From an uncultured Candidatus Peribacteria bacterium (lineage in GTDB: Bacteria; Patescibacteriota; Gracilibacteria; UBA1369; 2-02-FULL-48-14), in assembly GCA_964360635.1 (NCBI GenBank), contig CAYHXO010000006.1:438-64437 (forward strand): a stretch of DNA of 64,000 bases, written 5' to 3'. Positions 19,471-40,965 of this stretch are shown here, piece by piece (within the stretch, counting starts at the first letter, position 1; the number at the start of each line of letters is the position of its first letter). The notes beneath the pieces are model-generated. The model made no database searches, had not been told where the DNA came from, and saw only the letters and a program-made list of their open reading frames with translations. Made by a program: the position numbers and the translations under genes.

Positions 19471-20733
19471 TTATTTAAGCTTCAGCATCATAGCGTTTCT
19501 GGCTTCCGGGTCAATAGTGGCTTTATTGTCATCAATTTTGAGTTCAATTTTTCCACTCACATATTTCCCAGCTTCAATATCCTGAGCAATCACAAGTCCG
19601 GAAGTAATCATGGTGTTAGAACCAATTTTCACACCTGGCATTAAACTTGTATTTACTCCAATTCGAATATTATCACCGAGAATCGCTCCAAGTTTATTTG
19701 TTTCTTCAATTTTCTTTTCGTCTAAACGTAGATTTGCGCAAATTGCACCTGCTCCAAATCCACAATTATTTCCTATAATACTATCTCCAATATAGTTGGA
19801 ATGGAACCAAGTATCATCTCCAACATATGAACGAGCAACTTCTGTATTGAAGCCGATTACAGACCGTTTTCCAATAGATGACGCTCTAACAAGAGCATTA
19901 TTCCCCACGATAGAATTCTTTCCAATATATGCCGGCCCTTGAATCACCGCATGATCAAAAATCTTTACCCCACTTTCAATTACAACGTTTCCATTTATCA
20001 CAGCAGTTTTAGAAATCTGAGAATCTTCAGCAATACTTTTTTCCAATTTAGATAAGAAAAAAGCCGTCAAATTTAAAACATGCTGAGGGAATTTTAATGC
20101 CTGCCAGAAGCCACTATATGGAACTGCCTGAAATGTTCTTTCTTTCATTAAAATATCGAGTGCAATCTCATAACGATCATCTTTTTCTGAAGATACCTCT
20201 TTCAAAATCTCAAATAATCTTTTGGGATTTTTGTGCAAATGTAAAACTAAATTTATTAAATTTGAGGGTTCATTTCCCGCTCCGGGTTTTTCAATAATTC
20301 CGGTAATTTTTTCACCTTCTATTTTTAAATAACCTCCTGGAAAATATTCAAAAACTTCACGTGCCAACAGAAATGAATCGGCACCGGTGGCATTTTTCAT
20401 GGCATTATAAGCGCTTGTATCAACAACATCATTTCCACTTACAATAAATAAATCTTCTGCGCCGACTAAATCTTCTACAGATAGAACAGCTCCTGCCATT
20501 CCTTCATCCAAGTTTTTTTGTTCAACAACTTTTGCATCATATTTTTGAGCCACTTTTCTAAGCTTTTCTAAATTATGTGCTCCACCGACAATAATAATGT
20601 CATCAAAACCAGCTGATTTTAAAGCCTCAATTTGATGCTTAATTAAATATTTTCCACAGAATCTTAAGAAATTTTTATCTTCTATTGGTTTTGCCCTTTT
20701 ACTTCTACCAGCGGCTAACAGTAAAACTTTCAT
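19471..20733 (-). CDS. Bifunctional-type sugar-1-phosphate nucleotidyltransferase with hexapeptide-repeat (LbH) acyltransferase domain (GlmU-like)
   Basis: N-terminal MKVLLLAAGRSKR nucleotidyltransferase motif. The C-terminal half shows a hexapeptide periodicity of I/V/L-G-x-x (IGKNSIVGNNALV...IGNNCGFGAGAI...). The start was set to the ATG at 20733, because the track start is a TTG. Confidence 0.75.
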   Translation of the reverse strand: MKVLLLAAGRSKRAKPIEDKNFLRFCGKYLIKHQIEALKSAGFDDIIIVGGAHNLEKLRKVAQKYDAKVVEQKNLDEGMAGAVLSVEDLVGAEDLFIVSGNDVVDTSAYNAMKNATGADSFLLAREVFEYFPGGYLKIEGEKITGIIEKPGAGNEPSNLINLVLHLHKNPKRLFEILKEVSSEKDDRYEIALDILMKERTFQAVPYSGFWQALKFPQHVLNLTAFFLSKLEKSIAEDSQISKTAVINGNVVIESGVKIFDHAVIQGPAYIGKNSIVGNNALVRASSIGKRSVIGFNTEVARSYVGDDTWFHSNYIGDSIIGNNCGFGAGAICANLRLDEKKIEETNKLGAILGDNIRIGVNTSLMPGVKIGSNTMITSGLVIAQDIEAGKYVSGKIELKIDDNKATIDPEARNAMMLKLK

Positions 20734-20796
20734 AAATATCAATAAAGTGCTGGAATTTTACAGGTAAAAGGCTTTTCTTGCAATCTGACAGAATAG

Positions 20797-21576
20797 CTAT
20801 TTGTAATCCGGCAAAAAAGTCCAAAAAGACTGATGGATATTTCTCAAAGATTCTGCAATGTGAGGCTCTTCAATAATAATTCCAACAATGTCTCGGTAAA
20901 TTGAAACTATAGCGACTTTGTCACCATAAATATTTATTTCGACAGGAATATGTACATTATTTAACATTTTCAAAACCCGATTTTGTTCTTTACGATGCTT
21001 ATATGCCATATCTGAAGATTCTGACTTATTTAAAATTCCAAAATATTTAATTTTCTTTTTTGCACGACGAATTGTGTAATCCCAAAGCCAATTATTAAAA
21101 TCTTTTTGATTTGATACCGGAAAAAAATATTGAAAATCACCCATGCCATATATATTTACTCCCGGAGTTTTCAATGTATCTTCATAAATTTCTTTCATAC
21201 CTTCAAGCCCCTGAAAAAAGTGAATTTTTGGCTGAGCAAGAAGAGGATTTCTAATCTTTTCAAGATCCGGCAATATGCTGAGGAGTTTTTGTTTTTGGTT
21301 TTCTATTTCTTCTTTTCGATGATCCAAAATTGAAAGAATCGACTTGGGAGGGCGCGAATTAAAATATCTAACACTTCCCTTTGTGTACTCTTGCATTATT
21401 CTTTTTTCAATCAATGTGCCTAGAATATTGTAAGAATGACTTCTTTTAAGTCCACTTTTTTTGGCTAGTATTGATGCCGGCTGAGCACCTAATTCGAGAC
21501 AAGCCAGATAAAGTTTTGCTTCGAGGTCGCTGAGACCGAACTCAGTTAAAATGGAATTAATATCGAAATCTGCCAT
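20797..21576 (-). CDS. TrmB-family transcriptional regulator (copy a), divergent from the Cys-rich paralog array
   Basis: N-terminal wHTH FGLSDLEAKLYLACLELGAQPASILAKKSGLKRSHSYNILGTLIEKRIM. Length is ~255 aa, as in TrmB-like proteins. Confidence 0.8.
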   Translation of the reverse strand: MADFDINSILTEFGLSDLEAKLYLACLELGAQPASILAKKSGLKRSHSYNILGTLIEKRIMQEYTKGSVRYFNSRPPKSILSILDHRKEEIENQKQKLLSILPDLEKIRNPLLAQPKIHFFQGLEGMKEIYEDTLKTPGVNIYGMGDFQYFFPVSNQKDFNNWLWDYTIRRAKKKIKYFGILNKSESSDMAYKHRKEQNRVLKMLNNVHIPVEINIYGDKVAIVSIYRDIVGIIIEEPHIAESLRNIHQSFWTFLPDYK

Positions 21577-21658
21577 TATAAATAGCTATGAGAATTGAAA
21601 GAATATGAAATCATTTTTTAAATCAGATTGCAAGGCTTTTGTTGCAGGTATAAATATA

Positions 21659-21688
21659 TTGACATGAACTACATAATCAATATATTAT
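21659..21688 (+). promoter_or_regulatory. Putative promoter for the RHH gene and the paralog array
   Basis: TTGACA (21659-21664), then TATATT/TATTAT (21681-21688) after 16-18 nt. The TATGCATA palindrome and an ATCTAT...ATAGAC near-dyad lie just downstream. Confidence 0.4.
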
Positions 21689-21716
21689 CTATGCATATTA
21701 CATATAAGATAGACAT

Positions 21717-21875
21717 ATGCCCATTGTGAACTTTTCAATTCCAAAAAATCTTGATCTGCGAATTCAAGCAACAATTAAAGAAAAAGGCTTTGCTAGTAAG
21801 GCAGAATTTTTCCGTTACTGTGCTGTCCGCTATATTGACAGTGACAAAGATAGAAAGAATAATCTAGCAGGATGA
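21717..21875 (+). CDS. Small ribbon-helix-helix (CopG/Arc-like) protein, 52 aa; below the ORF-track cutoff
   Basis: Hand translation gives MPIVNFSIPKNLDLRIQATIKEKGFASKAEFFRYCAVRYIDSDKDRKNNLAG. The beta-strand (VNFSIP), helix, then GF-SKAEFFRY-helix arrangement is the RHH pattern. The ORF ends 13 nt before paralog 1. Confidence 0.55.
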   Translation: MPIVNFSIPKNLDLRIQATIKEKGFASKAEFFRYCAVRYIDSDKDRKNNLAG

Positions 21876-21888
21876 TCTCCCCAAACGG

Positions 21889-23478
21889 ATGATAAAAAAC
21901 TGCAAGAATTGCTCGGCTGAGTTTGAAATAACAAATGATGATTTGGATTTTTATGGGAAAATAAAAGTTCCTGAACCGACATTTTGTCCAGATTGTCGAT
22001 TACAGAGGAGATTGATGATGAGAAATGAAAAAAATCTTTATAAAAGGAGCTGTGATTTTTGTAAAAAATCCATAATTGCTTTTTTTGATTCAGATGTTAA
22101 CTTTCCGGTTTATTGTACTGATTGTTGGTGGAGTGATAAATGGGACCCTAGATCTTATGGACAAGATTTTAATTTCAATAGGCCATTTTTTGAGCAATTT
22201 AAAGAGTTAATAAATAAGGTTCCAAAAGCTAACCTACTTCAGCTTAATAATGAGAATTCTGAATATAATTCACTACTGGCATTTTCAAAAAATACATATA
22301 TGAGTCCAGGCTCATATTTATGTGAAGGATGTATTTATGTTAGAAAGAGTCAAAGCTGTAAAGACTGCATTAACAGCAATATAATTAATAAATGTGAACT
22401 TGTATCTAACTCTGTTAATTGTGATTCCTGTTATAGTTCGGACTATCTTTTAAACTGCCGTTCATGTTCATTCTCCTCATACTTGGATGATTGTTCAAAT
22501 ATGCAAAATTCGTTTATGTGCAGTGGAGTAAGAAATAAAAATTATTGTTTCAAAAATAAAGAATTAACTAAAGAAGAATTCGAGAAAATTCTTGCAGAAT
22601 ATAAAATGAAAAACCATGAAGATATATTTTCTGAATTTATGGGGTTCTCTTCATCCCTACCAAAACGTGCAGTAGTTCAATTTAATTGTGAAAATTCGAC
22701 TGGTGATTACTTGTATAACTCAAAAAATGCAGTCGAATGTTTTGATTCTTTTGATATTTTAGATTCAAAATATTTGGTTGAATGTTCGGGAATAAAAGAC
22801 TCAATGGATCTGTGCATGCATGATAAAGAAATTGAACTTTGCTATGAAATGAGTTCTGGTGGCGAAAAAAATTATATGTCTAAATTTTGCTATTGTTCAA
22901 TTGCCGCACCTTTTGGGGAATATTTATATTCATGTTTTTATTTATCAAATAGTTTTGGTTGCGATGGTTTTCATTCAAAAAATGAATACTGTATTTTGAA
23001 TAAACAGTATTCAAAAGAAGGGTACGAAGTTCTAGTCGCACGGGTTATTGAATATATGAAAACGGCTGGTGAATATGGTGAGTTTTTTCCTAATTTCATT
23101 TCAACATTTGCATATAATGAAAGTGCGGCTCAAGATTATTTCCCTCTAAGTAAAGAAGAAATCATATCGAAGGGATATGTATGGAAAGAAGCCGAGACTG
23201 CCAAAGCTCCAAGTGAAATCGCAGCCTTGGATTGTATAGTATGCAAAAAACAGTATCGAGTTATTAAACAAGAACAGGCACTTTACGACAAACTTAATTT
23301 AAAAATTCCAAAAAGATGCAGTGAATGTAGATATAAAGAACTATTAAAATGGAAAAATCCTCGAAAACTATGGACTCGTGCATGTGCAAAATGTGGAAAT
23401 AAAATCCACAGCAGCTATTCCCCGGAGCGAGCTGAGATTGTATACTGTGAAGCGTGCTATTTGGCTTCTGTATACTAA
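21889..23478 (+). CDS. Cys-rich multi-zinc-ribbon repeat protein, paralog 1 of 6 (unknown family)
   Basis: 529 aa with 38 Cys by my count. There are four terminal CxxC...CxxC ribbons and a duplicated Cys-ladder core. Shared family blocks include WWSDKWD, YCILNKQYSKE, GEYGEFFP and VYCEACYL. Confidence 0.85.
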   Translation: MIKNCKNCSAEFEITNDDLDFYGKIKVPEPTFCPDCRLQRRLMMRNEKNLYKRSCDFCKKSIIAFFDSDVNFPVYCTDCWWSDKWDPRSYGQDFNFNRPFFEQFKELINKVPKANLLQLNNENSEYNSLLAFSKNTYMSPGSYLCEGCIYVRKSQSCKDCINSNIINKCELVSNSVNCDSCYSSDYLLNCRSCSFSSYLDDCSNMQNSFMCSGVRNKNYCFKNKELTKEEFEKILAEYKMKNHEDIFSEFMGFSSSLPKRAVVQFNCENSTGDYLYNSKNAVECFDSFDILDSKYLVECSGIKDSMDLCMHDKEIELCYEMSSGGEKNYMSKFCYCSIAAPFGEYLYSCFYLSNSFGCDGFHSKNEYCILNKQYSKEGYEVLVARVIEYMKTAGEYGEFFPNFISTFAYNESAAQDYFPLSKEEIISKGYVWKEAETAKAPSEIAALDCIVCKKQYRVIKQEQALYDKLNLKIPKRCSECRYKELLKWKNPRKLWTRACAKCGNKIHSSYSPERAEIVYCEACYLASVY

Positions 23479-25101
23479 ATGTTAAATTGTAAAAAATGCG
23501 GACAAAACTTTGAACTTGAAGCCGAAGATTTTGAATTTTTAAAAAAGTTTGATGTTCCGGCGCCGACTCACTGCCCGGATTGCAGGAATCAAAGACGATT
23601 GGTTTTTCGAAATGACAGGAATTTTTACAAACGCGAATGTGATATGTGCAAGAAGATAATTATTTCGATTTATTCCGTGGACAGGCCATTCCCCGTCTAC
23701 TGCAAAGATTGTTTTTTAAGTGACAAATTCAATCCGCTCGATTACGGGAAAGATTTCAATTTCGACAAACCTTTTTTCGAACAATTTGAAGATATGAGAT
23801 CTAAAGTTCCTCGAATAGCGATTTATCAGACGCTTTGCGAAAACTCCGATTACATAGTGCATAGCGGAAAAAGTAAGAATTGTTACATGGGCAGTTCAAT
23901 GCGAGGTTGTGAAGATGTTTACTACTCGGATTTCGCACAAGTCAGCAGGGATTCACTCGATCTCTACATGTGCTCGCATATGGAAGAGTGCTATTTCTGC
24001 ACCGATTCAGACCAATGTTATCATTCATCGTATCTGGAGAATTGCCTAAGTTTAAATTTTTCCTATTTATGTTTTGACTGTCGCGCTTCCAATAATTTGA
24101 TCGGTTGCGTTGGACTTAGAAGAAAAGAATTTATGATTTTAAATCAGCCGTCGAATCAAAAAGATTTTGAGGAGACTTTAAAAAAATTAAATAATGATGC
24201 TGAGTTTAAGTGTGACTTTTTAGAAAAATTTGCGAAATTGAGACTCGAGATTCCGGTTAAATATTTTTGGGAGAAAAATTCTGAAAATTCTACCGGAAAT
24301 TATGTAGTTAATTCAAAAAATGCACGCGATTGTTATAATGTTTGGAATGTTGAAGACGGCAAATATATTTATGACAGTATGGACATGAAAGATTGCCTTG
24401 ATTCCACACGAATTGCAGGAGGAGAGATGCTTTATGAAACAAATGGTGGAATCGATCTGACTTTTAGCAAATTTTCCAATCTTTGTTACCAATGCAGTAA
24501 CATGGAATATTGCGACAATTCACAAAGTTCACATGATTGTTTCGGGTGCATGAGTTTAAAATCAAATCGTTTTTGCATTTTGAACAAACAATATAGCGAG
24601 GAAGAATGGAGAAAGCTCGCTACGCTCGTTATAGAACATATGAAAAAAACCGGTGAATATGGCGAATATTTCCCGGCGGGAATTACAGTTTTTGGATACA
24701 ATGAAACAAAGGCTTTTGACCACTTCCCACTTTCAAAAATAGAGGCAATTGCAAAAGGTTTTAAATGGAAGGATGTAGATTTGCGTCAATATTTACCGCA
24801 AACATATAAACTTACAAATGAAATAAATGATGATGTTTTAAATGAAATTTTGGCATGTTCATTATGCTCTAAAAACTACAAAATCATTCCGCAAGAATTA
24901 AAGTTCTATCGAAAAATGGGCCTTCCCATACCTGTTAAATGCTTTGAATGTAGGCATAAGGAGCGTCTGTCATATGAAAATCCACGAAAACTTTGGGATA
25001 GAAATTGTATGAAGTGTGGTGTCACGATTCAAACTACATATGCACCCGAATGTAGTGAAAAGGTGTATTGTGAGAAATGTTATTTAGCTGAAGTTCAATG
25101 A
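23479..25101 (+). CDS. Cys-rich multi-zinc-ribbon repeat protein, paralog 2 of 6
   Basis: 540 aa, homologous end to end with paralog 1. The ATG directly abuts the paralog 1 TAA. Confidence 0.85.
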   Translation: MLNCKKCGQNFELEAEDFEFLKKFDVPAPTHCPDCRNQRRLVFRNDRNFYKRECDMCKKIIISIYSVDRPFPVYCKDCFLSDKFNPLDYGKDFNFDKPFFEQFEDMRSKVPRIAIYQTLCENSDYIVHSGKSKNCYMGSSMRGCEDVYYSDFAQVSRDSLDLYMCSHMEECYFCTDSDQCYHSSYLENCLSLNFSYLCFDCRASNNLIGCVGLRRKEFMILNQPSNQKDFEETLKKLNNDAEFKCDFLEKFAKLRLEIPVKYFWEKNSENSTGNYVVNSKNARDCYNVWNVEDGKYIYDSMDMKDCLDSTRIAGGEMLYETNGGIDLTFSKFSNLCYQCSNMEYCDNSQSSHDCFGCMSLKSNRFCILNKQYSEEEWRKLATLVIEHMKKTGEYGEYFPAGITVFGYNETKAFDHFPLSKIEAIAKGFKWKDVDLRQYLPQTYKLTNEINDDVLNEILACSLCSKNYKIIPQELKFYRKMGLPIPVKCFECRHKERLSYENPRKLWDRNCMKCGVTIQTTYAPECSEKVYCEKCYLAEVQ

Positions 25102-26693
25102 TTAAAACTTGTAAAAATTGCTCGCAAAACTTTGAAATCAGGGAAGAAGATGTGGCAATTTATCAAAAATTGGATGTTCCTTATCCGAATTATTGCCCTA
25201 ACTGTAGAGCACAAAGAAGAACTTCATTTAGGAATGACTGGAATGTTTATAATAGAAAATGTGATTTGTGTAAAAAAAATATTGTGAGTGTTTATTCAAC
25301 GGATAAAAACGTAAAAGTATATTGTCAGGAATGTTATTGGAGTGACAAATGGGATGGCGGTCAATTTGCTAAAGATTTCGACTTTAACAGATCGTTTTTT
25401 GATCAAATGAAAGAATTAATTTCATCAGTTCCGCTCATTAATCTAACAATGATGAATTGTATAAACTGCGAATACAATACAAATGCGGTTAACTCAAAAG
25501 ATTGTTATTTGTCATCAAGATTGGGTGATAGCGAAGGAATTTTATATACATATTTGCCTGTGAAATCTTTGAATTGCGTTGACTGTTTCAACATAAATAC
25601 TTGCCAATATTGTTATGAATGTGTGGACTGTTGGAACTGTTATAACTCTATTTTTTGCGTTAGATGTAAAAGCACGAGTGATTCTTCTTTTTGTTTTGAG
25701 TGTATTAGTGTGAAAAATTGCTTTGGTTGTGTTGGGTTAAGAAACGTTGAATATTACTTTTTTAATCAAAAATGTACAAAAGAAGAATATGAAGAAAAAA
25801 TTAGAAATGTTGATATTTCCACACATGAAAAGCTCTTGGAAATGAAGAGAATATTTATTAAAAAGGTCAGCAAATATCCACACAGAGCTTCAGTTATTTT
25901 AAATTCAGAAAATGTCCTGGGTGACTATATTGCAGATTCAAAAAACGTATATAATTCATTCGACATCGAAAAAAGTGAAGATGTTGTTAACTCATGGGGT
26001 GTTGAATTTGCAAAGGATGTTTATGACGGATGTTTTATTTATATTGGCGAAAATGTTTACGATACAATTGGAAATTTTGATAGCCAGAATATAAGATTTT
26101 CTGCCTTCCCATATAATTGTCACGATAGTTACTACTTATTTTCTTGTTTCAATAACACCGGCAATTGCTTCGGTTGCGTTTCATTGAAACAAAAACAGTA
26201 CTGTATTTTAAATAAACAGTACACAAAAGAAGAGTATGAAGCTTTGCTTCCGCGAATTATTGAACATATGAAAAAAACCAGTGAATATGGTGAATTTTTC
26301 CCTGTTTCAATATCTCCATTTGCATATAATGAGACGGTTGCTTATGAATTTTTTCCAATGACAAAAGATGAAGTTTTAGCCTGTGGTTTAAAATGGAAAG
26401 ATTTTGAGCGAAAAAACTCATCCGGTCTAAGTGAAGATATTGTATCATGCATCCAATGTGAAAGAATTTTTAAATTAATTCCAAAAGAATTAGCCTTTTA
26501 TCGAGAGAAAAAGCTTCCAAATCCTAAAAAATGTCATATTTGCAGACATGCCGAAAGGTTAAATCAGAGAAATCCAAGACACCTTTGGACTCGAAATTGT
26601 GCTAAGTGCAAAGTCGAAATATCTACCGGCTATTCACCGGAAAGGTCGGAAACGGTATATTGTGAATCGTGTTACTTATCTGAAGTCTACTAA
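25098..26693 (+). CDS. Cys-rich multi-zinc-ribbon repeat protein, paralog 3 of 6
   Basis: 531 aa with the same blocks. It has an ATGA overlap with paralog 2. Confidence 0.85.
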   Translation: MIKTCKNCSQNFEIREEDVAIYQKLDVPYPNYCPNCRAQRRTSFRNDWNVYNRKCDLCKKNIVSVYSTDKNVKVYCQECYWSDKWDGGQFAKDFDFNRSFFDQMKELISSVPLINLTMMNCINCEYNTNAVNSKDCYLSSRLGDSEGILYTYLPVKSLNCVDCFNINTCQYCYECVDCWNCYNSIFCVRCKSTSDSSFCFECISVKNCFGCVGLRNVEYYFFNQKCTKEEYEEKIRNVDISTHEKLLEMKRIFIKKVSKYPHRASVILNSENVLGDYIADSKNVYNSFDIEKSEDVVNSWGVEFAKDVYDGCFIYIGENVYDTIGNFDSQNIRFSAFPYNCHDSYYLFSCFNNTGNCFGCVSLKQKQYCILNKQYTKEEYEALLPRIIEHMKKTSEYGEFFPVSISPFAYNETVAYEFFPMTKDEVLACGLKWKDFERKNSSGLSEDIVSCIQCERIFKLIPKELAFYREKKLPNPKKCHICRHAERLNQRNPRHLWTRNCAKCKVEISTGYSPERSETVYCESCYLSEVY

Positions 26694-28345
26694 TGCCTGA
26701 TATTAAACAGAACTGCCGAACTTGCTCAAAAGAATTCGTTGTGAATGAATGGGAACAAGCACATTTGCAAAAAATGGGTGGTTTTCCACTGCCAACTTTG
26801 TGTATAGATCACAGACATCAAAGAAGATTTGCCTATAGAAATGAGAGGAAATTATATAAAGATAAATGTGATTTTAGCGGAAAAGATATTATTTCAATTT
26901 ATTCGCCGGATAAAAATTTGAAAGTTTATTCCCAAGAAATTTGGTGGAGTGACAAATGGGATGGACGCGATTACGGAAGAGATTTTGACTTTAGTAGGCC
27001 ATTTTTTGATCAATTTCAAGAGCTAAGATTGTCGACTCCAAGAATGTCTCTTTTGAATTCAAATGGTGAAAATAGCGAATATTGCAATCTAACAACTGAT
27101 AATAAAAACTGCTATTTAGTTTTTGGGGGAGATTTTAATCAAGATGCTCTTTATTCAATATTTTGTTTTTATTCAAGAGATGTTGCGGATCTTTATTGGG
27201 TGAATAAATCGGAACTTATTTATGACTCAATTGATTGTTCGAATTGCTACAATATTAAGCATGCACAAAATACTTATAACTGTCGTGATGGGGCATTTTT
27301 ATTTGATTGTCGAAACTGTGAATATTGTATTGGATGTGTTGGTTTACGCGGTAAAAAATATCATATTTTCAACAAAGCATATTCGCCGGAAGATTATGCA
27401 AAAAAAATGCATGAATTAAGGTTAGATACTTGGAGCGGAGTACAAAAATTTAAAGTGGAGTTTAATAAATTTAAATTGAATTTTCCAATGCTTTTTGCAA
27501 GTATTGTGAATTGTGAAAACTGCAGTGGTGATAAAATTAAAGATGCTAAAAATTGTGAGAACTGCTTTGATATTTATGGCCCTGTTGAAGACTGTAAAGA
27601 TGTATTCTTAGGAGGCTGGAATTTAAAAGATGCTCTTAGCTCTAGTCACATTGGTCATAAATCAGAAATAGCATATGAATCAATTGGGATTCCCGGAGTT
27701 CACACAACTGCTTTTTCGTCATTTGTATGGTTTGGAAGCAATGTTTACTATTCAGATACAGTTGCTTATTGTAATAATATTTTTGGTTGTTCGAATATGA
27801 ATAAAGCCGAATATTGCATTTTGAACAAACAATACAGTAAAGAAGATTATGAAAGTTTACGTGCAAGAATTGTGGAGCATATGAAAAAAACCGGTGAATG
27901 GGGTGAGTTTATGCCAATCAAAAATTCTCTTTTTGCATACAATGAAACCGTTGCTCAAGATTTCTTTCCTAAAAGCAAGGATGAAGCTTTTTCCGAAGGC
28001 ATTAAATGGCTTGATGAAGAAGTTCGTGAGATAAAACCTCAAGATATTCCAGACTCAATTCACGATGCAAAAGATGATATTTTACAAGGAACATTCATAT
28101 GTGAAAAAACCGGAAGACCCTATCGGATTGTTCCTGCGGAATTAAAATTATATCGACAAATGGGAATCCCAATCCCTCATTTTGCTCCTGAAACTCGGAA
28201 TGAAATGCGCATTCAAGCTAGAAATCCTCATCATACCTGGTCAAGAAATTGCACAAAGTGTGGAATGAAGATTGAAACTAGTTATGCTCCTAATCGGCCA
28301 GAAAATGTATACTGTGAGCCTTGTTATTTGGCTGAGGTTTACTGA
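26693..28345 (+). CDS. Cys-rich multi-zinc-ribbon repeat protein, paralog 4 of 6 (degenerate N-terminal and third ribbons)
   Basis: 550 aa with a TAATG overlap with paralog 3. Ribbon 2 reads CDFSGK...VYSQEI instead of CDxCKK...VYCxxC. Confidence 0.85.
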   Translation: MPDIKQNCRTCSKEFVVNEWEQAHLQKMGGFPLPTLCIDHRHQRRFAYRNERKLYKDKCDFSGKDIISIYSPDKNLKVYSQEIWWSDKWDGRDYGRDFDFSRPFFDQFQELRLSTPRMSLLNSNGENSEYCNLTTDNKNCYLVFGGDFNQDALYSIFCFYSRDVADLYWVNKSELIYDSIDCSNCYNIKHAQNTYNCRDGAFLFDCRNCEYCIGCVGLRGKKYHIFNKAYSPEDYAKKMHELRLDTWSGVQKFKVEFNKFKLNFPMLFASIVNCENCSGDKIKDAKNCENCFDIYGPVEDCKDVFLGGWNLKDALSSSHIGHKSEIAYESIGIPGVHTTAFSSFVWFGSNVYYSDTVAYCNNIFGCSNMNKAEYCILNKQYSKEDYESLRARIVEHMKKTGEWGEFMPIKNSLFAYNETVAQDFFPKSKDEAFSEGIKWLDEEVREIKPQDIPDSIHDAKDDILQGTFICEKTGRPYRIVPAELKLYRQMGIPIPHFAPETRNEMRIQARNPHHTWSRNCTKCGMKIETSYAPNRPENVYCEPCYLAEVY

Positions 28346-29097
28346 GCCACGAAGGAAGTTGCGCCGAGCCAAGAAAGATCGAAAATTGCCTTTTGAGTGC
28401 GTGCATAAACAGCCGATTCGATTAAAACGCCGGTTAGTTCATCTGGATTGAGAGACATTATTGCAACAAAATTATCGTAAATTGAAATTTGGTTTTCAAA
28501 GGCAAATTCATTTGGATTCACGAAAAGAATTTCTACAAGTTCTTCCGGATATTTTTTTGGATAAAAGTTTTCAACAAAGTATCTGGCCTCCTTTGTTGAA
28601 GGGGTAAGTAGCCTGACTTTTATACCTTTCCTAACCAATTTCTGAAGATATCCTGGTAAATAATCTGGGAGTAAATTTCCGAGTGCTTCTAAATTTGTAT
28701 ATCCTAAAACATCTGATTTTGCTTCGAGAGTTTGTTCAAAAATAGTTTTAATTCCATCAATTCCCTCGTAAGAACGGATGATTGGTTTGAAGGCACTTGT
28801 ATTTGTTAGTGAAATTAATTCAGGTAAAAGTGATTTGGCTTTTTCAAATTTTTCTTCAATTTGATTCACGAGAACTTGTGGAGGTTCTGCAACAAAAAAT
28901 TTAACATTACCTTTCAAATTGGTCGTTATAAGTCCCTTATTTTTTAATGTATCAAGAATGTAATAACAGTTTACACGAGCTGTATTAGACTTTCTTGCAA
29001 TGGTACTGGCAAAAGATCCACCTAATTCCAATACAGTTATGTAAACTTGAGCTTCTTCTTTTGAAAGACCGAATTGTTCAAGCTGATTTACGAGCAT
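28339..29097 (-). CDS. TrmB-family transcriptional regulator (copy b), inside the array
   Basis: FGLSKEEAQVYITVLELGGSFASTIARKSNTARVNCYYILDTLKNKGLI. The gene is tail-to-tail with paralog 4 (7-nt overlap) and divergent from paralog 5. Confidence 0.8.
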   Translation of the reverse strand: MLVNQLEQFGLSKEEAQVYITVLELGGSFASTIARKSNTARVNCYYILDTLKNKGLITTNLKGNVKFFVAEPPQVLVNQIEEKFEKAKSLLPELISLTNTSAFKPIIRSYEGIDGIKTIFEQTLEAKSDVLGYTNLEALGNLLPDYLPGYLQKLVRKGIKVRLLTPSTKEARYFVENFYPKKYPEELVEILFVNPNEFAFENQISIYDNFVAIMSLNPDELTGVLIESAVYARTQKAIFDLSWLGATSFVAQ

Positions 29098-29193
29098 GTT
29101 GTAAGAATATTTCTACAAGAAATATACCCTGTTAAATGGCGGATTACAAGCTTATATTATGTACTTTTTTACAAGCTATGATAAAGTTTAAGC

Positions 29194-30846
29194 ATGGAAA
29201 TCAATAAAACATGTACATCGTGCGGCAAAAGTTTTGTAGTTAACGAACTAGACCAAAAATTTTATGAAAAAATGGTGGTTCCAATGCCAACATTATGTCC
29301 TGATGAAAGGGCAAAACGTAGGTTAGCATTCAGAAATGAAAAACACCTTTATCACAGGAAATGTGATTTAAGCGGGAAAAGTATTATTTCAAATTATTCC
29401 ATAGATAAAGTTAACAAAGTTTACGATCAGAAAGAGTGGTGGAGTGATAAATGGAGTGCAATGGATTATGGGCGTGATTTTGATTTTAATCGTTCATTTT
29501 TCGAACAATATTCTGAGCTTCAAAAAGAAGTGCCTCGCTTGAATTTGCTAAGTATAAATAATGAAAATAGTGATTACACAAATTGTGTTTCAAATTTGAA
29601 AAATTGTTACTTACTTTTTTCGTCCGATTTTAGTCAAGATTGTTATTACGGCGATTGGGTACAAAATTCAAAGAATTGCGTGGATAATTATTTAATAGTT
29701 AGAAGTGAATTGGCATACGAATGTTTCTATTCACAGAGCATTTACAGAGGTATTTATATCTTTAATTCATCAAATTGTACTGATAGCGCCTTTTTATATG
29801 ACTGTCGCGGCTGCAATGATTGTTTCATGTCATACGGCTTAAGAAATAAAAAATATTGCATCGAGAATAAGGAATATTCAAAAGAAGAGTATGAGAAATT
29901 GATGAAAGAAATTAAGATTAGTTCTAATGCGAATTTTTCAAAATTAAAGCAGAAGTTCTTTGAAATTATCAAAAATCATCCTCGACTTTACATGCAAAAA
30001 ATGGGGAGAGTTGAATCTTCAACGGGTGATCTTTTTATGGATAGTGAGAATTGTCTTGAATCATTTGAAGTTGTGAAAGGAAAAGACTGCAAGTTTGTAC
30101 AATCCGGATTTGAAATTAAGGATATTTATGATTCTTCTTATGTAAATGGCGAGCTGGGTTATGAAAACTGCGAATGTTTTCCAATGCCATATAATTCCGC
30201 CTTTAATGTAAACACATATACCGGCCAAAATCTTTTCTATACAGATAGTTGTATGAGCAATTGCTCAGATTGTTTTGGATGTATAAGTCTTCGCGCAAAT
30301 AAGTACTGTATTTTAAATAAACAATACACAAAAGAGGAATATGAAAATATGAAAGCTCGGATTATTGAGTATATGAAAAAAACCGGTGAATGGGGGGAGT
30401 TCTTCCCTATCGAACTTTCACCTTTTGGATACAATGAAACAAACGCTCAAGAGTTTTTCCCAATCACAAAAGAAGATGCTTTGAGTGAAAAATATAAGTG
30501 GAAGGAGGAAGATGAAAATTCGAGTTATTCAGGGCCTTATGTAAATATTCCGGATGATATTAAAGATGTGGATTCTGAAATTACGAAGCAGATTTTGAAA
30601 TGCGAAATTAGTGGAAAACTTTATAAAATAATTCCTCAGGAGTTAGAATGTTATAAAACTATGGGCATTCCAATTCCAAGGTGTTCGCCCGAACAAAGAT
30701 GGAAAGATAGATTTTCAAAGCAAAATCCTAGAACACTTTGGGATAGAAAATGTGAGAATTGTTCAAAAGGAATTAAAAGCACTTATTCTCCGGATAGACC
30801 TGAAAAAGTTTATTGTGAGGTGTGCTATTTAAAAATAGTCTATTAA
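29194..30846 (+). CDS. Cys-rich multi-zinc-ribbon repeat protein, paralog 5 of 6
   Basis: 550 aa with the same family blocks. The N-terminal ribbons are degenerate (CPDE, CDLSGK). Confidence 0.85.
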   Translation: MEINKTCTSCGKSFVVNELDQKFYEKMVVPMPTLCPDERAKRRLAFRNEKHLYHRKCDLSGKSIISNYSIDKVNKVYDQKEWWSDKWSAMDYGRDFDFNRSFFEQYSELQKEVPRLNLLSINNENSDYTNCVSNLKNCYLLFSSDFSQDCYYGDWVQNSKNCVDNYLIVRSELAYECFYSQSIYRGIYIFNSSNCTDSAFLYDCRGCNDCFMSYGLRNKKYCIENKEYSKEEYEKLMKEIKISSNANFSKLKQKFFEIIKNHPRLYMQKMGRVESSTGDLFMDSENCLESFEVVKGKDCKFVQSGFEIKDIYDSSYVNGELGYENCECFPMPYNSAFNVNTYTGQNLFYTDSCMSNCSDCFGCISLRANKYCILNKQYTKEEYENMKARIIEYMKKTGEWGEFFPIELSPFGYNETNAQEFFPITKEDALSEKYKWKEEDENSSYSGPYVNIPDDIKDVDSEITKQILKCEISGKLYKIIPQELECYKTMGIPIPRCSPEQRWKDRFSKQNPRTLWDRKCENCSKGIKSTYSPDRPEKVYCEVCYLKIVY

Positions 30847-32513
30847 TGACTGTGATTACTAAAACATGTCGGGTTAGTGGAAAAGAATTCATTGTCACAG
30901 ATGAAGATCAGCAGTTTTATGAAAAAATGGGAGTGCCGTTGCCAACTTTATGTCCCGAAGAACGAATGCGACGTAGATTGGCTTTTCGAAATGAAAGGAA
31001 TCTTTATCATAGAAAATGTGATTTAAGCGGAAAAGAGTTGATTTCAAATTTTTCACCTGATAAACCTAATAAAGTTTATGACCAAAAAGACTGGTGGAGT
31101 GATAAATGGGATGCACTTTCGTATGGAATGGACTTTGATTTTACCCGGCCTTTTTTTGACCAATTTGAGGAACTATTAAAAAAAGTTCCACTCCCACATG
31201 TCGTTGGCTCAATTGATATTGAGGAAAGCAATTGTAGATATACCAATTATGCTGGTGATAACAAAAATTGTTATTTAATTTTTGACTCAGATTTTAATGA
31301 AGATTGTCAGTATGGTGAAGTAATTAAACATTCAAAATCTTGCTTGGATTCTTCCTATTTGAAAAGCTGTGAATTGATGTATGGATGCCTAGATTGTCAT
31401 AGTTGTTATAATTTAAAATACTCACAAGATTGTACAAATAGTTTTGATTCTTTTTTTCTAAAAAATTGCATTTCGTGTAAGAATTGTTTTGGATGTGTTG
31501 GTCTTGTACAAAAAGAATACTACATTTTCAATAAGCCATTTAGCAGAGAGGAATATCAGAATTTTCTTAAAAAGTTCGTAGCAGGCAAAAGGAGTGCAGT
31601 ATTAGATATGCAGAAAAAATTTGAAGAATTCTCAACTTGTTTCCCAGTTAAATATTTCCATGGGATACAAATCGAAAATTCCGATGGTGATTATTTAAGC
31701 AATGTAAAAGATGTCCATAATTGTTTTGATGTAGGAAATTCTAGAGATCTGCATTATTGCGACTCACTATACACCGCAAATGACTGCATGGATGTTTCTT
31801 CATTTGGAGAGAAAATTGAACTCGTTTATGAATCAGGAACAGTTGGCATTAATTGTACAAACATTAAATTCTGCCATGGAATTGTAAACAATTGTTCCGA
31901 TATAAATTATTCAATGTACTGTAGATCATCACAAAATCTTTTCGGATGTGTGGGAATAAAAAGGGGTAATTATACTATTCTTAACAAGAAATATACGAAA
32001 GAAGAGTATGAATTTTTATTACCACGAGTTATAGAACATATGAAGAAAACAGGCGAATTGGGCGAGTATTTCCCAATGAAATTATCTCCGTATTGTTATA
32101 ATGAATGTATGTCACAGGAATATTTTCCAATTACTAAAGAAGAAACTTTAAAGTTGGGTTTAAAGTGGTTTGAACCTGAAACTCAAAGCCATTATCAAGG
32201 TCAAAAAATAGTGACTCCAGAAAATATCATAGATGTGGATGAATCGATTTTAAAACAAATTCTTACATGTAATAACTGTACAAAAAATTATAAAATAAAT
32301 AAAATGGAGCTGGATTTTTATAAAAATATGGGAATTCCTGTGCCGCAAATTTGCTCACATTGCAGGTATAAAGTGAGAATGAAACAAAAAAATCCTAGAC
32401 AATTATTAGAAAGGAACTGTAGCAATTGTTCAAAAGATATCCAAACTACATACTCAAATGAACGAGTTGAGAAAGTTTATTGTGAAGAGTGTTATTTAAA
32501 GCATGTTTACTAA
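30846..32513 (+). CDS. Cys-rich multi-zinc-ribbon repeat protein, paralog 6 of 6
   Basis: The start was moved to the ATG at 30846 (MTVITKTCRVSGKEF). This aligns with the other N-termini and gives the same TAATG junction seen between paralogs 3 and 4. Length is ~555 aa. Confidence 0.8.
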   Translation: MTVITKTCRVSGKEFIVTDEDQQFYEKMGVPLPTLCPEERMRRRLAFRNERNLYHRKCDLSGKELISNFSPDKPNKVYDQKDWWSDKWDALSYGMDFDFTRPFFDQFEELLKKVPLPHVVGSIDIEESNCRYTNYAGDNKNCYLIFDSDFNEDCQYGEVIKHSKSCLDSSYLKSCELMYGCLDCHSCYNLKYSQDCTNSFDSFFLKNCISCKNCFGCVGLVQKEYYIFNKPFSREEYQNFLKKFVAGKRSAVLDMQKKFEEFSTCFPVKYFHGIQIENSDGDYLSNVKDVHNCFDVGNSRDLHYCDSLYTANDCMDVSSFGEKIELVYESGTVGINCTNIKFCHGIVNNCSDINYSMYCRSSQNLFGCVGIKRGNYTILNKKYTKEEYEFLLPRVIEHMKKTGELGEYFPMKLSPYCYNECMSQEYFPITKEETLKLGLKWFEPETQSHYQGQKIVTPENIIDVDESILKQILTCNNCTKNYKINKMELDFYKNMGIPVPQICSHCRYKVRMKQKNPRQLLERNCSNCSKDIQTTYSNERVEKVYCEECYLKHVY

Positions 32514-32848
32514 AACATCAACGCCATTTGGATTTTGATTCTTTTCATTATTGTTTCATCTAGATTTGAGACGTGTTTTTGTATTCTAATTTTATCGATA
32601 GTTCTAATTTGAAATAAAAGAGCGACACTATCAAAATTTAGCTTTGAAATTCTTTTGTCTATAAAATATGTAGTGATGTGACCTTTTGCAGTGAGATTTT
32701 TTGTTAATGGAGCAACTATGACGGTGTTTAGATTTTTATTTAAAATATCATTTTGAAGAATTAGAATCGGTCGACAACCTGATTGTTCATGGACTTTAAC
32801 AGGGTCAAGATTTGCGAGATAAATTCCGGCTTGTTTAATTTCAATCAT
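32510..32848 (-). CDS. mazF: PemK/MazF-family toxin
   Basis: 112 aa. GIYLANLDPVKVHEQSGCRPILILQND...VIVAPLT is the PemK/MazF core pattern. Confidence 0.8.
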   Translation of the reverse strand: MIEIKQAGIYLANLDPVKVHEQSGCRPILILQNDILNKNLNTVIVAPLTKNLTAKGHITTYFIDKRISKLNFDSVALLFQIRTIDKIRIQKHVSNLDETIMKRIKIQMALMF

Positions 32849-33068
32849 TTTTTGGCATTATTGCTAACCATTCATCTTCACTAGGAAGATCATCGAATTT
32901 TATTTTTGAAAGTGCCTTAGCATCTTTTTCAAGTTGAGTGTTGAGCAAATCTTTAATTGCATGTTCAATTAATGAGCTTTTACTTACACCTGATGTTTCT
33001 GTGAGATTATCTAACATTTCGTTTATGACAGGGTTAATTGTAATGGAGATACGGGTTTTACTTTGCAT
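32841..33068 (-). CDS. Ribbon-helix-helix antitoxin (MazE/CopG-like) paired with the MazF-like toxin
   Basis: 75 aa. RISITINPVINEMLDNLTETSGVSKSSLIEHAIKDLL fits the RHH pattern. It overlaps the toxin gene by 8 nt. Confidence 0.7.
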   Translation of the reverse strand: MQSKTRISITINPVINEMLDNLTETSGVSKSSLIEHAIKDLLNTQLEKDAKALSKIKFDDLPSEDEWLAIMPKND

Positions 33069-37042: not shown

Positions 37043-38211
37043 AATCCAAAATCCTTCAGAACATTCCGAAACTATATTTAATGCAGTTTTTTTCGGAGCT
37101 GATTTTCTTTATTCCTATAATGATCCCATTTTTTGGAGGGTTAGGATTTTCGATGAAAGAGATTTTGATGCTGGAAGGTGCTTTTGCCGCGATGTTGGTA
37201 CTTTTTGAAATTCCATCAGGATATTTTTCGGATAGAGTTGGTAGAAAAAAGACATTGATACTCGGTACATTAATTCAGCTGATTGGATTAATCTTATTTG
37301 TTTTCTCTAATGAGTATTTATGGTTTTTTATTGGCGAGTTAATAATTGGTATTGGTAGTAGTTTGGTTTCCGGAACTGTTGAGGCTTTGATTTTTGAAAG
37401 TCTTGCTGAGGCAAAACAAAGTTCAAAATATAAAAAAATCCAAGGAAATATTTTTTCATTTGCAAGAATCGGTTCGCTTTTCAGCAATATTTTAGGAGCA
37501 ATGTTGGCAATTATTTCAATCAGACTTCCTTTTCACTTAACTCTAATTACATGGACAATTTGGTTCTTAATTAATTTAACTTTAATTGAGCCAGAGAAAC
37601 ATGAGATGGAATCTGAGAAGTGGCAGCACTTTAAACGTATTTTTAGAGAAACTTTCGGCGGTAATAAAAAATTGGGATTATTCATTGTTTACTCATCAAT
37701 TCCATATGGTTTTTTCTTTATAACTTTCTGGCTTTATCAGAGATATATGGAGTTTATAGAATTGCCGATTTTTTATTTTGGATTCGTGATTGCAGCAATG
37801 AATATTGCGTCAATTATCGGTTCAAAATATGGTAAAGAGATTGAGGATTTTGTCGGCCAAAAACTTTGCATGATCTTACTACCTCTCGTTGCAGTTTTAG
37901 ATTGGATTTTGCTCGCGAATATTCAAACATTTTGGGCGATTCCTTTTTTAACAATTACAAGCCTGCTTTGGGGATTAACGATGCCATTATTTTATGACTA
38001 CATTCAACAAACAATAAGTAACGATAGACGAGCTACTGTTCTTTCAATTCGAAGCTTTTTCTCACGCGGAATTTATTTTGTATTCTCACCACTTTTAGGA
38101 ACCATAACGGATTTGTGGGGAATACAAGATGCACTATTAGCTTCTGCTATTTTGCTGTTTATTTTTAGCGGGGCGAGTTGGATTAGCCTAAGGAAAGTTG
38201 GGGTTTTATAA
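37033..38211 (+). CDS. MFS transporter
   Basis: About 12 hydrophobic segments. The MFS loop motif is GYFSDRVGRKKTLILG. Confidence 0.8.
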   Translation: MGMKSKILQNIPKLYLMQFFSELIFFIPIMIPFFGGLGFSMKEILMLEGAFAAMLVLFEIPSGYFSDRVGRKKTLILGTLIQLIGLILFVFSNEYLWFFIGELIIGIGSSLVSGTVEALIFESLAEAKQSSKYKKIQGNIFSFARIGSLFSNILGAMLAIISIRLPFHLTLITWTIWFLINLTLIEPEKHEMESEKWQHFKRIFRETFGGNKKLGLFIVYSSIPYGFFFITFWLYQRYMEFIELPIFYFGFVIAAMNIASIIGSKYGKEIEDFVGQKLCMILLPLVAVLDWILLANIQTFWAIPFLTITSLLWGLTMPLFYDYIQQTISNDRRATVLSIRSFFSRGIYFVFSPLLGTITDLWGIQDALLASAILLFIFSGASWISLRKVGVL

Positions 38212-38403
38212 GTCTGCATCTCTAAAAATCTGCTTTATTATTTTGGGATGTAGAGTTTTTGAGGTGTGAAATGGTATAGTTAAACGAATTCCGGATTCAT
38301 TTTTGTAGATTCTATGGCTTCCACTTTGTCGGATAAGTTTAAATCCACGCTTCTCGACCAAAGTAGCCAAATCCTTGGCATTTAATCTAGGTAATTTGAC
38401 CAT
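38206..38403 (-). CDS. hicA: HicA-family toxin (second copy)
   Basis: The start was trimmed to MVKLPRLNAKDLATLVEKRGFKLIRQSGSHRIYKN... The track start extends into hicB. Confidence 0.75.
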   Translation of the reverse strand: MVKLPRLNAKDLATLVEKRGFKLIRQSGSHRIYKNESGIRLTIPFHTSKTLHPKIIKQIFRDADL

Positions 38404-38405
38404 AA

Positions 38406-38654
38406 TTAAATGCTTACCTGAAGTGAAGTGACATTTATGGATTTGGGGCTTCTCCAAGTTTGCCCTTCCTCCATTCTGTCCTCAATGTGGAGTTTTATGA
38501 CATCTTTAATATTAAAAAGCGCCTGCTCATAAGTTTCGCCTTGAGTGTAACAGCCCTGTAACTGCGGACAGTAAGCAAAGAAACCACTATTGTCTTCTTC
38601 TATTATCACCGTAAAAAGTTGTTTCTTTTTCATGAAATCGATATATGTTTTCAT
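38406..38654 (-). CDS. hicB: HicB-family antitoxin (second copy)
   Basis: FTVIIEEDNSGFFAYCPQLQGCYTQGETYEQALFNIKDVIKLHIED is present. Confidence 0.7.
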   Translation of the reverse strand: MKTYIDFMKKKQLFTVIIEEDNSGFFAYCPQLQGCYTQGETYEQALFNIKDVIKLHIEDRMEEGQTWRSPKSINVTSLQVSI

Positions 38655-39940: not shown

Positions 39941-40965
39941 CCTAGAATATCTTGTAAACGGCCAGATTGAATTGCTGTTTTAATTTCGCGAGCTACACGA
40001 CGACCAGTAGACATTGGCTCGTTATATTTTAACCAAGTATATGGTGAACCATTTGTGTAAGGATTTGTTCCTGCGACAATTCTTGCAGATATTTCGAAAA
40101 CACGGAAATTTAAATTTGGATCAATAATTCCTTCGAGACAGAAAGGACCGTAAAGACCCTTTGGAACTCCGTCGAGTTTTTTTGAAGCCGCAACAACATC
40201 TTCACCAATTTTGAAAAACATCGGCAACATTGATTCACGCACAACAATCGGAATATTTCCTGTGATTGTGTAACTGGTTTGAATTCCGGCATCGAGCTGA
40301 TCTTTGGCGGCAATTCGACCGATTGAGTCTGCGTTTGATTCATAACGTTTATCGAAGCTCATGATTTCAAGTTCACCTGTGAGTGCCGATTGAAAGTAAT
40401 GAACATACATAGGAACTCCAACAATATATTCTTGAATAACATAATCATCAGGATCTTTAAATTTTTTAATTCTTTCGTAGAATTCTTCAGTTGAATTTGC
40501 AATAAAATAACCGAAGCCACCTTTTGCTCCGTGGAATTTCACGATTGCCGGACCGTCAATTTCTTCCGGAGTTTTATAAATTTTAGGCAGATTTAAACCC
40601 GCATCTTGAAGCCAAACTCTTTCCATTGATCGGTCTGATTCCCAGATCAAAATTCCTTTTGATCCGTAGTGCATTGCCTTTAGCGAATCTTTGATTTTCT
40701 GAGGACCAAGATAACTAACAAAACTTCCGTGCGGAATTACGATTGCATTTTTTCCCATCAGAATTTTCTCGATTTCAAAAAAATTCTCGAAAGAATCTAT
40801 TTCGATTATTTCATCGGCTACTCCATAACTATCGTATGGTTTGCGCGTTTCTTTAGTACAAATCGCTATTGCCTTCATGCCTTCATCACGAGCACCCTTG
40901 AGGATTTGGAGAGCCGTGTGGCTCCCTAGTGTGGCTATCGCAAAATCTTTAATATCGTTGCTCAT
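39937..40965 (-). CDS. purP: PurP (archaeal-type, formate/ATP-dependent FAICAR synthetase), paralog 1
   Basis: 342 aa. IATLGSHTALQILKGARDEGM, IVIPHGSFVSY, VKFHGAKGGFGYFIANSTEEFY, DKRYESN, ITGNIPIVVRESMLP and GPFCLEG...FEISARIVAGTN closely match my recollection of Methanocaldococcus PurP. Confidence 0.85.
   Translation of the reverse strand: MSNDIKDFAIATLGSHTALQILKGARDEGMKAIAICTKETRKPYDSYGVADEIIEIDSFENFFEIEKILMGKNAIVIPHGSFVSYLGPQKIKDSLKAMHYGSKGILIWESDRSMERVWLQDAGLNLPKIYKTPEEIDGPAIVKFHGAKGGFGYFIANSTEEFYERIKKFKDPDDYVIQEYIVGVPMYVHYFQSALTGELEIMSFDKRYESNADSIGRIAAKDQLDAGIQTSYTITGNIPIVVRESMLPMFFKIGEDVVAASKKLDGVPKGLYGPFCLEGIIDPNLNFRVFEISARIVAGTNPYTNGSPYTWLKYNEPMSTGRRVAREIKTAIQSGRLQDILG

Follow-up and report, generated by a model that had tools for sequence, protein, structure and literature searches.

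What do six neighbouring, related genes for cysteine-rich proteins do in a Candidatus Peribacteria bacterium? They lie in a 64,000-nucleotide stretch of DNA (the window) from an uncultured member of this lineage (GenBank assembly GCA_964360635.1, contig CAYHXO010000006.1, positions 438 to 64,437 of the forward strand), where they fill positions 21889-32513. Our analysis gives an answer in two parts. The proteins combine terminal zinc modules with a core of ~330 residues that matches neither a described family nor a solved fold. Their recurrent gene neighbours point, tentatively, to a role as cytoplasmic adaptors or scaffolds for a soluble VirD4/TrwB-like ATPase. The novelty lies in the family, the fold and the context, with no demonstrated mechanism.

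The array consists of six intact paralogs of 529-555 amino acids (aa), all co-directional on the plus strand and with zero internal stops (TGA is a stop codon in the window), as an earlier sequence-only reading of this DNA had reported. A hidden Markov model of the family, run against the 64-kb window, matches exactly these six genes. The copies align end to end, with 39-43% identity to copy 1 and 100 invariant columns, which bears out the full-length homology claimed in that reading. The motif blocks it quoted are present, although several are consensus-like and not exact. The block (W/Y)WSDKWD, for instance, had been given for five of the six copies; it is exact in copies 1, 3, 4 and 6, and reads WWSDKWS in copy 5 and FLSDKFN in copy 2. 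Copies 1 to 6 contain 38, 37, 40, 27, 30 and 35 cysteines, a content of 5-7.5%, and the first of these counts agrees with the earlier one.

Four gene junctions were found just where they had first been read. The stop of copy 1 directly abuts the start of copy 2 (TAA-ATG, 23476-23481), copies 2 and 3 overlap in ATGA (25098-25101), and TAATG joins copies 3 and 4 (26691-26695) as well as copies 5 and 6 (30844-30848). Judged from these junctions, translational coupling is plausible. The six copies are probably co-transcribed. Copy 6 could start at GTG 30822, giving 563 aa, or at ATG 30846, giving 555 aa. The ATG is preferred, because it lines up with the N-termini of the other copies. The genes around the array are chromosomal housekeeping genes, encoding MutS, LexA, enolase, serine dehydratase, POR, PurH/PurP, MutL, AlaRS and MiaB.

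Searches for known relatives agree with the earlier statement that the family is unrecognised. Pfam and NCBIfam scans of the six copies gave matches to the terminal zinc fingers only, leaving the core unmatched. None of the six copies matched a PADLOC defence model at E<=1, and PHROGs gave only weak matching, to the unannotated phrog_15341 (E ~1e-4). In a profile search of the PDB, we found LIM-like matches to the last finger only, plus a match to the Tenebrio molitor antifreeze protein at E=2, which is not significant. Foldseek searches, two against PDB and one against BFVD, found nothing above a template modelling score (TM) of 0.12 on the core. The sole recurring neighbours were left-handed beta-helix enzymes, at TM 0.06-0.12, a root-mean-square deviation (rmsd) of 11-22 A and 4-15% identity. 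Hexapep had no match in the copies at E<=1, while the adjacent nucleotidyltransferase gene (19471-20742), used as positive control, scored 61.9 bits. A full-length match to a family of known function, sought by both profile and fold searches, was not found, and neither was a description of the family in the literature searched.

The layout of the proteins is well supported. Each has a double treble-clef zinc module, solenoid A, helices, solenoid B, a conserved helical region and a second double zinc module. In profile-profile comparison, residues 3-82 are homologous to 447-526 (N-terminal against C-terminal zinc module, hhalign E 1.8e-31), and residues 109-238 to 255-386 (solenoid A against solenoid B, E 1.1e-35). 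By this measure, the zinc module and the solenoid are both internally duplicated.

Each protein has no more than four Cys4 sites, and three of the four are dispensable in the family. Site 1 is formed by C5, C8, C33 and C36, site 2 by C55, C58, C76 and C79, site 3 by C449, C452, C477 and C480, and site 4 by C499, C502, C520 and C523. Site 4 reads C-x2-C-x17-C-x2-C in all six copies, is invariant in alignments of 125 and 145 sequences, and is the sole invariant zinc site of the family. Sites 1-3 are degenerate in most members, with sites 2 and 3 lost in most. At related loci, proteins with all four sites intact are the largest single class, yet a minority (counts per site for the window copies are in Table 1). 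We computed the co-occurrence of cysteines (phi) over 447 non-redundant family members. Those of the zinc sites are gained or lost as sets, with phi of 0.98-1.0 at site 2 and 0.86 at site 1; at site 3 the value is 0.97 for C452-C480 and ~0.70 for pairs that include C477. Such presence or absence as sets at sites 1-3 is how real metal sites would be expected to behave.

Within each module the order is zf_Tbcl followed by zf_Tbcl_2 or TIGR04272, all as weak or near-threshold treble-clef matches. For zf_Tbcl (PF13451, gathering score 24 bits), copies 1 (24.1) and 5 (24.6) pass, copies 2 (18.3), 4 (17.5) and 6 (17.1) fall below, and copy 3 has no match; the ligand set C5/C8/C33/C36 is complete in copies 1-3 only. 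Scores range from 14.5 to 21.2 bits for zf_Tbcl_2 (PF23477, cut-off 27) and from 14 to 17 bits for TIGR04272 ("CxxC-x17-CxxC", cut-off 36). The likeness to these families is that both fingers occur in tandem in the N- and C-terminal modules. The differences are that they cover ~170 of ~540 residues, with scores at or below threshold, and that the Pfam families are themselves functionally uncharacterised.

The zinc modules are basic, with a pI of 7.5-9.3 (8.3-9.3 in all except the N module of copy 1). The acidic parts are solenoid B and the short 93-112 linker, and in most copies also solenoid A and the conserved helical region. No transmembrane segment was detected in the six copies (maximum Kyte-Doolittle 19-residue mean <=1.18), nor any signal sequence, as the N-termini begin with a zinc knuckle. 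The proteins look cytoplasmic, in line with the first impression from the translations.

Most of the cysteines, including all those at family-wide Cys-enriched positions, are located in the two beta-solenoid repeats. The 16 Cys-enriched positions of solenoid A all share a single residue class modulo 3 (chance ~7e-8), and the period-3 power is above all 2,000 shuffles. Conserved K(N/D)C motifs repeat at 12-residue spacing and, in rows of 12, Cys, Ser, Val and Thr stack in four columns. These cysteines are near-independent of each other, with phi<=0.34 except for one i,i+3 pair at 0.57, and across the family they are swapped one at a time for S, V, L, T or A. Of the other pairs, the strongest are mostly i,i+12, which points to stacking between successive coils, and not to i,i+6 partners or four-ligand sets. 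From these patterns, we read the solenoid cysteines as stackable, individually replaceable interior residues, not as obligate metal ligands. The earlier label of "multi-zinc-ribbon" protein is therefore only partly right: the terminal modules are zinc fingers with up to four Cys4 sites, but most cysteines are in the solenoids and are replaceable.

AlphaFold2 gave a predicted local distance difference test (pLDDT) of 86 and a predicted TM (pTM) of 0.89 for copy 1, where repeat A is moderately confident only. For copy 3, with a more diverse alignment, the values are 92.6 and 0.91, and beta-bridges appear every third residue along repeat A. The models confidently predict a compact molecule. The core is read as two very tight beta-solenoids, with a 12-residue register and an inward-facing residue every third position.

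The most conserved segments of the family are non-repeat, namely DFDFxRPFFEQF (93-112) and YCILNKQYSKEEYE...IEHMKKTGEWGEFFP...FAYNET (366-420). Invariant or near-invariant residues are D95, Q103, N371, K372, H389, E395, E398, Y409, N410 and E411. Some variations of the architecture were found. Two members, P0222 (343 aa) and P0262 (329 aa), are core-only, with both zinc modules missing, and one of 731 aa (P0132) carries an N-terminal GNAT acetyltransferase fusion. Short genes resembling the core-only members are also seen at loci L017, L020, L028, L073 and L076.

Three known groups of proteins invite comparison with the core or with the whole family. The first is the Tenebrio molitor antifreeze protein (PDB 1EZG), which shares with solenoid A the 12-residue register, an inward-facing small residue every third position and a high Cys content. 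Unlike it, the family lacks a TxT ice-binding face and a signal peptide, and its solenoid is one part of a cytoplasmic protein of 540 aa and several domains. Besides the insignificant sequence match given above, the Foldseek matches listed do not include 1EZG, and i,i+6 pairs are absent from the top co-occurring Cys pairs of the family. The second group is the left-handed beta-helix acyltransferases and their kin (LpxD, LpxA, GlmU, gamma-carbonic anhydrase), whose recurrence as Foldseek neighbours confirms a solenoid-type core. The hexapeptide repeats of that fold have a 2+4 inward pattern, whereas the family has an inward period of 3 and no hexapeptide-repeat Pfam match. The third is a set of cysteine-rich proteins from the same broad lineage, the Peribacteria, with a similar Cys content of ~7%. 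Those are of ~1,655 aa, mostly signal-peptide-bearing, extracellular and encoded in a 14-gene cluster (Anantharaman et al. 2016, PMC4736985). Identity with them was rejected, given the ~540 aa length, cytoplasmic look and different architecture of the present family.

In terms of distribution, the family falls at 90% identity into more than 6,222 clusters, every one of which is annotated as "hypothetical" or "zinc-ribbon domain containing". A search with only the core brings up 4,110 clusters at 50% identity (1,739 at E<=1e-30), nearly all with the same ~550-aa architecture. The best matches to the window copies are from metagenome-assembled genomes of Peregrinibacteria and Peribacteria. Among GTDB representative genomes, at least 574 stretches carry the family, and our locus comparisons use the best 80 of these. 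All but one (79) of the 80 are labelled as Patescibacteria lineages or plainly as "bacterium", the exception being a bin labelled Micrarchaeota. The lineages include Peregrini-, Peri-, Gracili- and Abawacabacteria, Paceibacterota, Nomurabacteria and some bins labelled Saccharibacteria. Among the sampled genomes, the family is found only in Patescibacteria.

The family is all but missing from phage, plasmid and IMG/VR collections. These searches gave only the stand-alone zinc module and one marginal match, on which ground an origin from a mobile element or phage was rejected. Stand-alone versions of the zinc module occur in Firmicutes and in a gut phage. One of them, a double module of 92 aa, is encoded on Pusillibacter faecalis plasmid pMM59_01 (L081, 5025-5303), directly downstream of a gene for a sigma-70 family sigma factor. 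This is the usual place of an anti-sigma factor, a single anecdote that suggests a protein-binding role for the module.

Same-strand arrays hold from 1 to ~10 copies. The window array is syntenic with those of L002 (a 962-kb contig) and L001 (Peregrinibacteria genome CP064962), internal TrmB gene included, and positional orthologs are shared among the three. In a neighbour-joining tree, window copies 1, 2, 5 and 6 pair with L002 copies 1, 2, 4 and 5. Between orthologs, the identity of the solenoids is 0.60-0.63, against 0.63 for the whole protein. Between paralogs, the solenoids are the most divergent parts, at 0.32-0.34 (0.24 for helix 1). The nearest orthologs are ~63-77% identical in protein, a distance at which synonymous sites would be saturated. 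Conservation of the solenoids between orthologs, together with their divergence between paralogs, indicates that the paralogs are old and individually maintained, not fast-diversifying. The suggestion of a diversified set for host or phage interaction, made before such comparisons, is thus disfavoured: positional orthologs exist, and between them the solenoids are no less conserved than the remainder of the protein.

Clustering of all neighbouring open reading frames (ORFs) reveals two real recurrent neighbours, a TrmB-like regulator and a VirD4/TrwB-type ATPase, in the pattern T< F>..F> A> (regulator, family genes, ATPase). Conserved neighbour clusters 2-5 were rejected as antisense ORF artefacts. 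The sequence-only reading had missed the recurrent ATPase, and it counted one opposite-strand TrmB gene where the range holds two (Table 1).

In 13 of 58 arrays, a soluble ATPase of this type (~750 aa) follows downstream within 1.5 kb. A search centred on the ATPase found same-strand adjacent family genes, before, after or between ATPase genes, at 18 of 80 metagenomic loci. The ATPase of the window has the Walker A motif GKSGTGKS, an acidic tail ending in ...EFEMPLI and no transmembrane (or any hydrophobic) segment; DUF8128 is found in an ortholog. Against PADLOC, it gives only generic ATPase-level matches to mad8/HerA. A tail of the form ...(E)P[LMI][ILV] after a variable acidic linker ends 29 of 37 family-adjacent ATPases, as opposed to 6 of 76 others (Fisher 4.5e-14). 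In other Patescibacteria, at 30 of the 80 ATPase loci, a ~350-aa DNA-binding protein with Sigma70_r4 and HARE-HTH is encoded upstream. No VirB-type Pfam match was found among the larger scanned ORFs of the 64-kb window. Patescibacteria are reported to have 5,713 VirD4-type homologs, only 148 of them near virB4 (PMC12102498).

Two further observations concern these ATPases. More distant VirD4-like homologs, at loci L090-L121 and others, have no family neighbour and often the Sigma70_r4 and HARE-HTH protein instead. A second ATPase subtype, with the tail ...VPEDVLRKILE, is also present inside family clusters (A>F>A>).

A TrmB-like gene, divergent or internal, accompanies 18 of the 66 arrays with room to judge, and it occupies the same internal position in L001, L002, L011 and L066. 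The two window genes are 29% identical. The second overlaps the 3' end of copy 4 by 7 nt at its own 3' end and is divergent from copy 5. Upstream of copy 1, the best promoter-like site (TTGACA-16-TATATT, 21659-21686) is overlapped by the inverted repeat listed in Table 1; promoter-like sites overall are not enriched over shuffles, and this one is a lead only. Between the second TrmB-like gene and copy 5 are a palindrome, TTGTAAGAATATTTCTACAA (29099-29118), and a direct repeat, TTACAAGCT, present twice (29144 and 29169). The inverted repeat, on one side, and the palindrome and direct repeat, on the other, are candidate TrmB operators. The small ORF with likeness to a ribbon-helix-helix (RHH) protein, just upstream of copy 1, was considered as a conserved module member or TrwA-like accessory and rejected, with no homolog in the 80 related loci; it has no Pfam match.

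Table 1. Coordinates in the window of the six-copy array, its domains (for copy 1) and its neighbours.
Feature	Position	Strand	Remarks
TrmB-like regulator 1, 259 aa	20797..21576	-	Upstream of and divergent from the array; Pfam TrmB PF01978 33.3 bits (cut-off 25.6)
Perfect 10-nt inverted repeat AATATATTGA-N14-TCAATATATT	21653..21686	+	Overlaps best promoter-like site; candidate promoter/operator
RHH-like ORF, 52 aa, N-terminus MPIVNFSIPKNLDLRIQ...	21717..21875	+	Directly upstream of copy 1
Copy 1, 529 aa	21889..23478	+	Cys at zinc sites 1-4: 4/4/4/4; all four Cys4 sites intact
Copy 1, zinc module N	21889-22164	+	Domain of copy 1
Copy 1, linker and solenoid A	22165-22563	+	Domain of copy 1
Copy 1, helices	22564-22662	+	Domain of copy 1
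Copy 1, solenoid B	22663-23004	+	Domain of copy 1
Copy 1, conserved helical region	23005-23217	+	Domain of copy 1
Copy 1, zinc module C	23218-23475	+	Domain of copy 1
Copy 2, 540 aa	23479..25101	+	Cys at zinc sites 4/4/4/4 (four Cys4 sites); start abuts stop of copy 1
Copy 3, 531 aa	25098..26693	+	Cys at zinc sites 4/4/4/4 (four Cys4 sites); richest Cys ladder (40 Cys); ATGA overlap with copy 2
Copy 4, 550 aa	26693..28345	+	Degenerate zinc sites, Cys 3/1/1/4; TAATG overlap with copy 3
TrmB-like regulator 2, 252 aa	28339..29097	-	Between copies 4 and 5; Pfam TrmB 49.2 bits
Copy 5, 550 aa	29194..30846	+	Cys at zinc sites 3/1/1/4
Copy 6, 555 aa	30846..32513	+	Cys at zinc sites 2/1/4/4; TAATG overlap with copy 5
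Soluble VirD4/TrwB-type ATPase, like a type IV coupling protein, 747 aa	33221..35464	+	Pfam T4SS-DNA_transf, TrwB_AAD_bind, TraG-D_C

With this context, the explanation that we tentatively favour, as a possibility, is that the paralogs are cytoplasmic, paralog-specific adaptors or scaffolds for the neighbouring soluble VirD4/TrwB-like ATPase. The paralog battery would serve a hexameric ATPase, and the basic zinc modules may dock onto nucleic acid, onto the conserved acidic C-terminal tail of the ATPase, or onto both. The solenoid surfaces, divergent between paralogs but conserved between orthologs, would give each paralog its own cargo or target specificity, and the divergent and internal TrmB regulators would control expression of the array. 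A wider version, a little more doubtful, is that the family and the orphan soluble VirD4-like ATPases form a lineage-specific cytoplasmic machine, where an ATP-driven translocase would receive the cargos, nucleic acids or proteins, that the paralogs select.

The closest known arrangement is that of type IV coupling proteins with their substrates or adaptors, such as TrwB-TrwA/TrwC, TraD-TraM and DotL-IcmSW. Here too, as far as the genes tell, a VirD4/TrwB-type ATPase with an acidic C-terminal tail is beside multi-paralog proteins, and by analogy the family members could be adaptors or substrates. Unlike in those systems, the ATPase is soluble, relaxase and secretion channel genes are not nearby, and the family has no homology to known adaptors, relaxases or effectors.

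Several points weigh against the adaptor explanation. No homology to a characterised protein supports any function. The adjacency of ATPase or TrmB is facultative, at ~22-27% of arrays, and many arrays and single genes have neither within the sequence examined. The association of the tail motif with the family is confounded by phylogeny, as the family-adjacent ATPases are each other's closest relatives. Binding of nucleic acid or of the tail by the zinc modules is pure inference. The existence of the core-only members implies that the essential activity resides in the core, and H389, E395, E398, N410, E411, D95 and Q103 could equally be a catalytic site. Finally, a copy number of 1 to ~10 argues against a fixed hetero-oligomer.

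Among the rivals, the one that survives best, although unlikely, uses the same neighbour in another way. The paralogs would be effectors that the VirD4-like coupling ATPase recruits for export, via the type IV secretion system of Patescibacteria, into host cells or onto them, with the Cys ladders forming disulfide staples outside the cell. Coupling-protein genes classically adjoin those of their substrates, as stated for relaxases (PMC12102498), and family genes adjoin or interleave with the ATPase on the same strand. Expansion into paralogs is typical of effector sets, and the closest sequence-pattern analogue of solenoid A, at its non-significant E=2, is the secreted, disulfide-stapled beta-helix of Tenebrio. 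However, the ATPase has no membrane anchor, and secretion channel genes were not found in the 64-kb window. Most coupling-protein homologs of Patescibacteria are encoded at a distance from virB4, and epibiotic growth did not require the one that was tested, with exaptation suggested (PMC12102498). The solenoid cysteines show no i,i+6 co-variation of disulfide pairs, and the C-terminus is a folded, invariant Cys4 finger and not a disordered signal. The paralog surfaces, moreover, are conserved between orthologs, not fast-evolving.

Slightly less likely again is that the core is an enzyme. The invariant polar and aromatic residues where the two solenoids meet would make up its active site, with the zinc modules as accessory substrate-binding parts and the paralogs differing in substrate. 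The conserved non-repeat segments with the ten residues listed above, the core-only proteins, the single GNAT-family fusion and the acyltransferases as nearest, weak fold neighbours all fit this explanation. Yet a catalytic motif is not recognisable, and a Hexapep or other enzyme-family match is absent where the neighbouring nucleotidyltransferase scores clearly. The Foldseek values (TM<=0.12, rmsd>=11 A) are also against it, and metabolic genes are not recurrent beside the arrays.

Co-assembly of the paralogs through their solenoids into a cytoplasmic, bactofilin-like lattice or filament appears improbable. Beta-solenoid domains are present, several paralogs would be co-expressed and translationally coupled, and paralog sets are retained over the long term. 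On the other side, the high-pTM compact monomer models put both solenoids between conserved cap motifs and helices, no match to bactofilin or another polymer family was found, and copy number ranges from 1 to ~10. The least probable explanation, already raised as metal binding or redox buffering when only the translations were at hand, is that the proteins are Zn/Fe stores, Fe-S carriers or thiol redox buffers: it appeals to 27-40 Cys per copy, many CxxC pairs and CX2CX2CX2C blocks at 172-181 and 202-211, but is disfavoured by solenoid cysteines that are individually replaced and do not co-vary as true ligand sets do (phi 0.86-1.0), by a best-conserved block that is incomplete in window copies 1, 2 and 5, and by the loss of zinc sites 2 and 3 in most of the family.

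Other features of the window were also recorded. Copy 6 is separated from the ATPase gene by a MazF/PemK toxin (112 aa) and RHH antitoxin (75 aa) pair (32510-33068, minus strand), and the 3' end of the toxin gene overlaps the stop of copy 6 by 4 nt. The L001 array contains a HicA/HicB pair. Toxin-antitoxin pairs seem to be inserting into these arrays. Elsewhere (38206-38654, minus strand), two small overlapping ORFs resemble, by translation only, a HicA-type toxin (83 aa, ...GSHRIYKN...) and a HicB-type antitoxin (82 aa).

Beside PurH, at 38831-42572 (minus strand), are two tandem DUF1246/DUF1297 genes, which we take to be archaeal-type PurP, 5-formaminoimidazole-4-carboxamide ribonucleotide synthetase. 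The presence of purine synthesis genes in a reduced genome of the candidate phyla radiation is noteworthy. A 1,046-aa ORF at 4807-7947 (plus strand) has no Pfam match at E<=1e-5. Another, of 1,307 aa (44103-48026, minus strand), has bacterial TSP3 repeats and an adjoining M23/LysM peptidase, and probably represents a large surface protein.

Patescibacteria account for a sizeable part of bacterial diversity, and much of their small proteome is uncharacterised. The array takes up ~1% of a genome of roughly 1-1.3 Mb, and it belongs to a family of thousands of sequence clusters, with ordered paralog sets retained across species. The label "Cys-rich" is now concrete, standing for two solenoids with Cys ladders plus zinc sites, four at most. 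The linkage of the family to the ATPase gives a first testable functional context, both for the family and for VirD4-like ATPases away from secretion systems (PMC12102498). If the proposed machine of family and ATPase is real, it could feed the host-interaction apparatus of these episymbionts.

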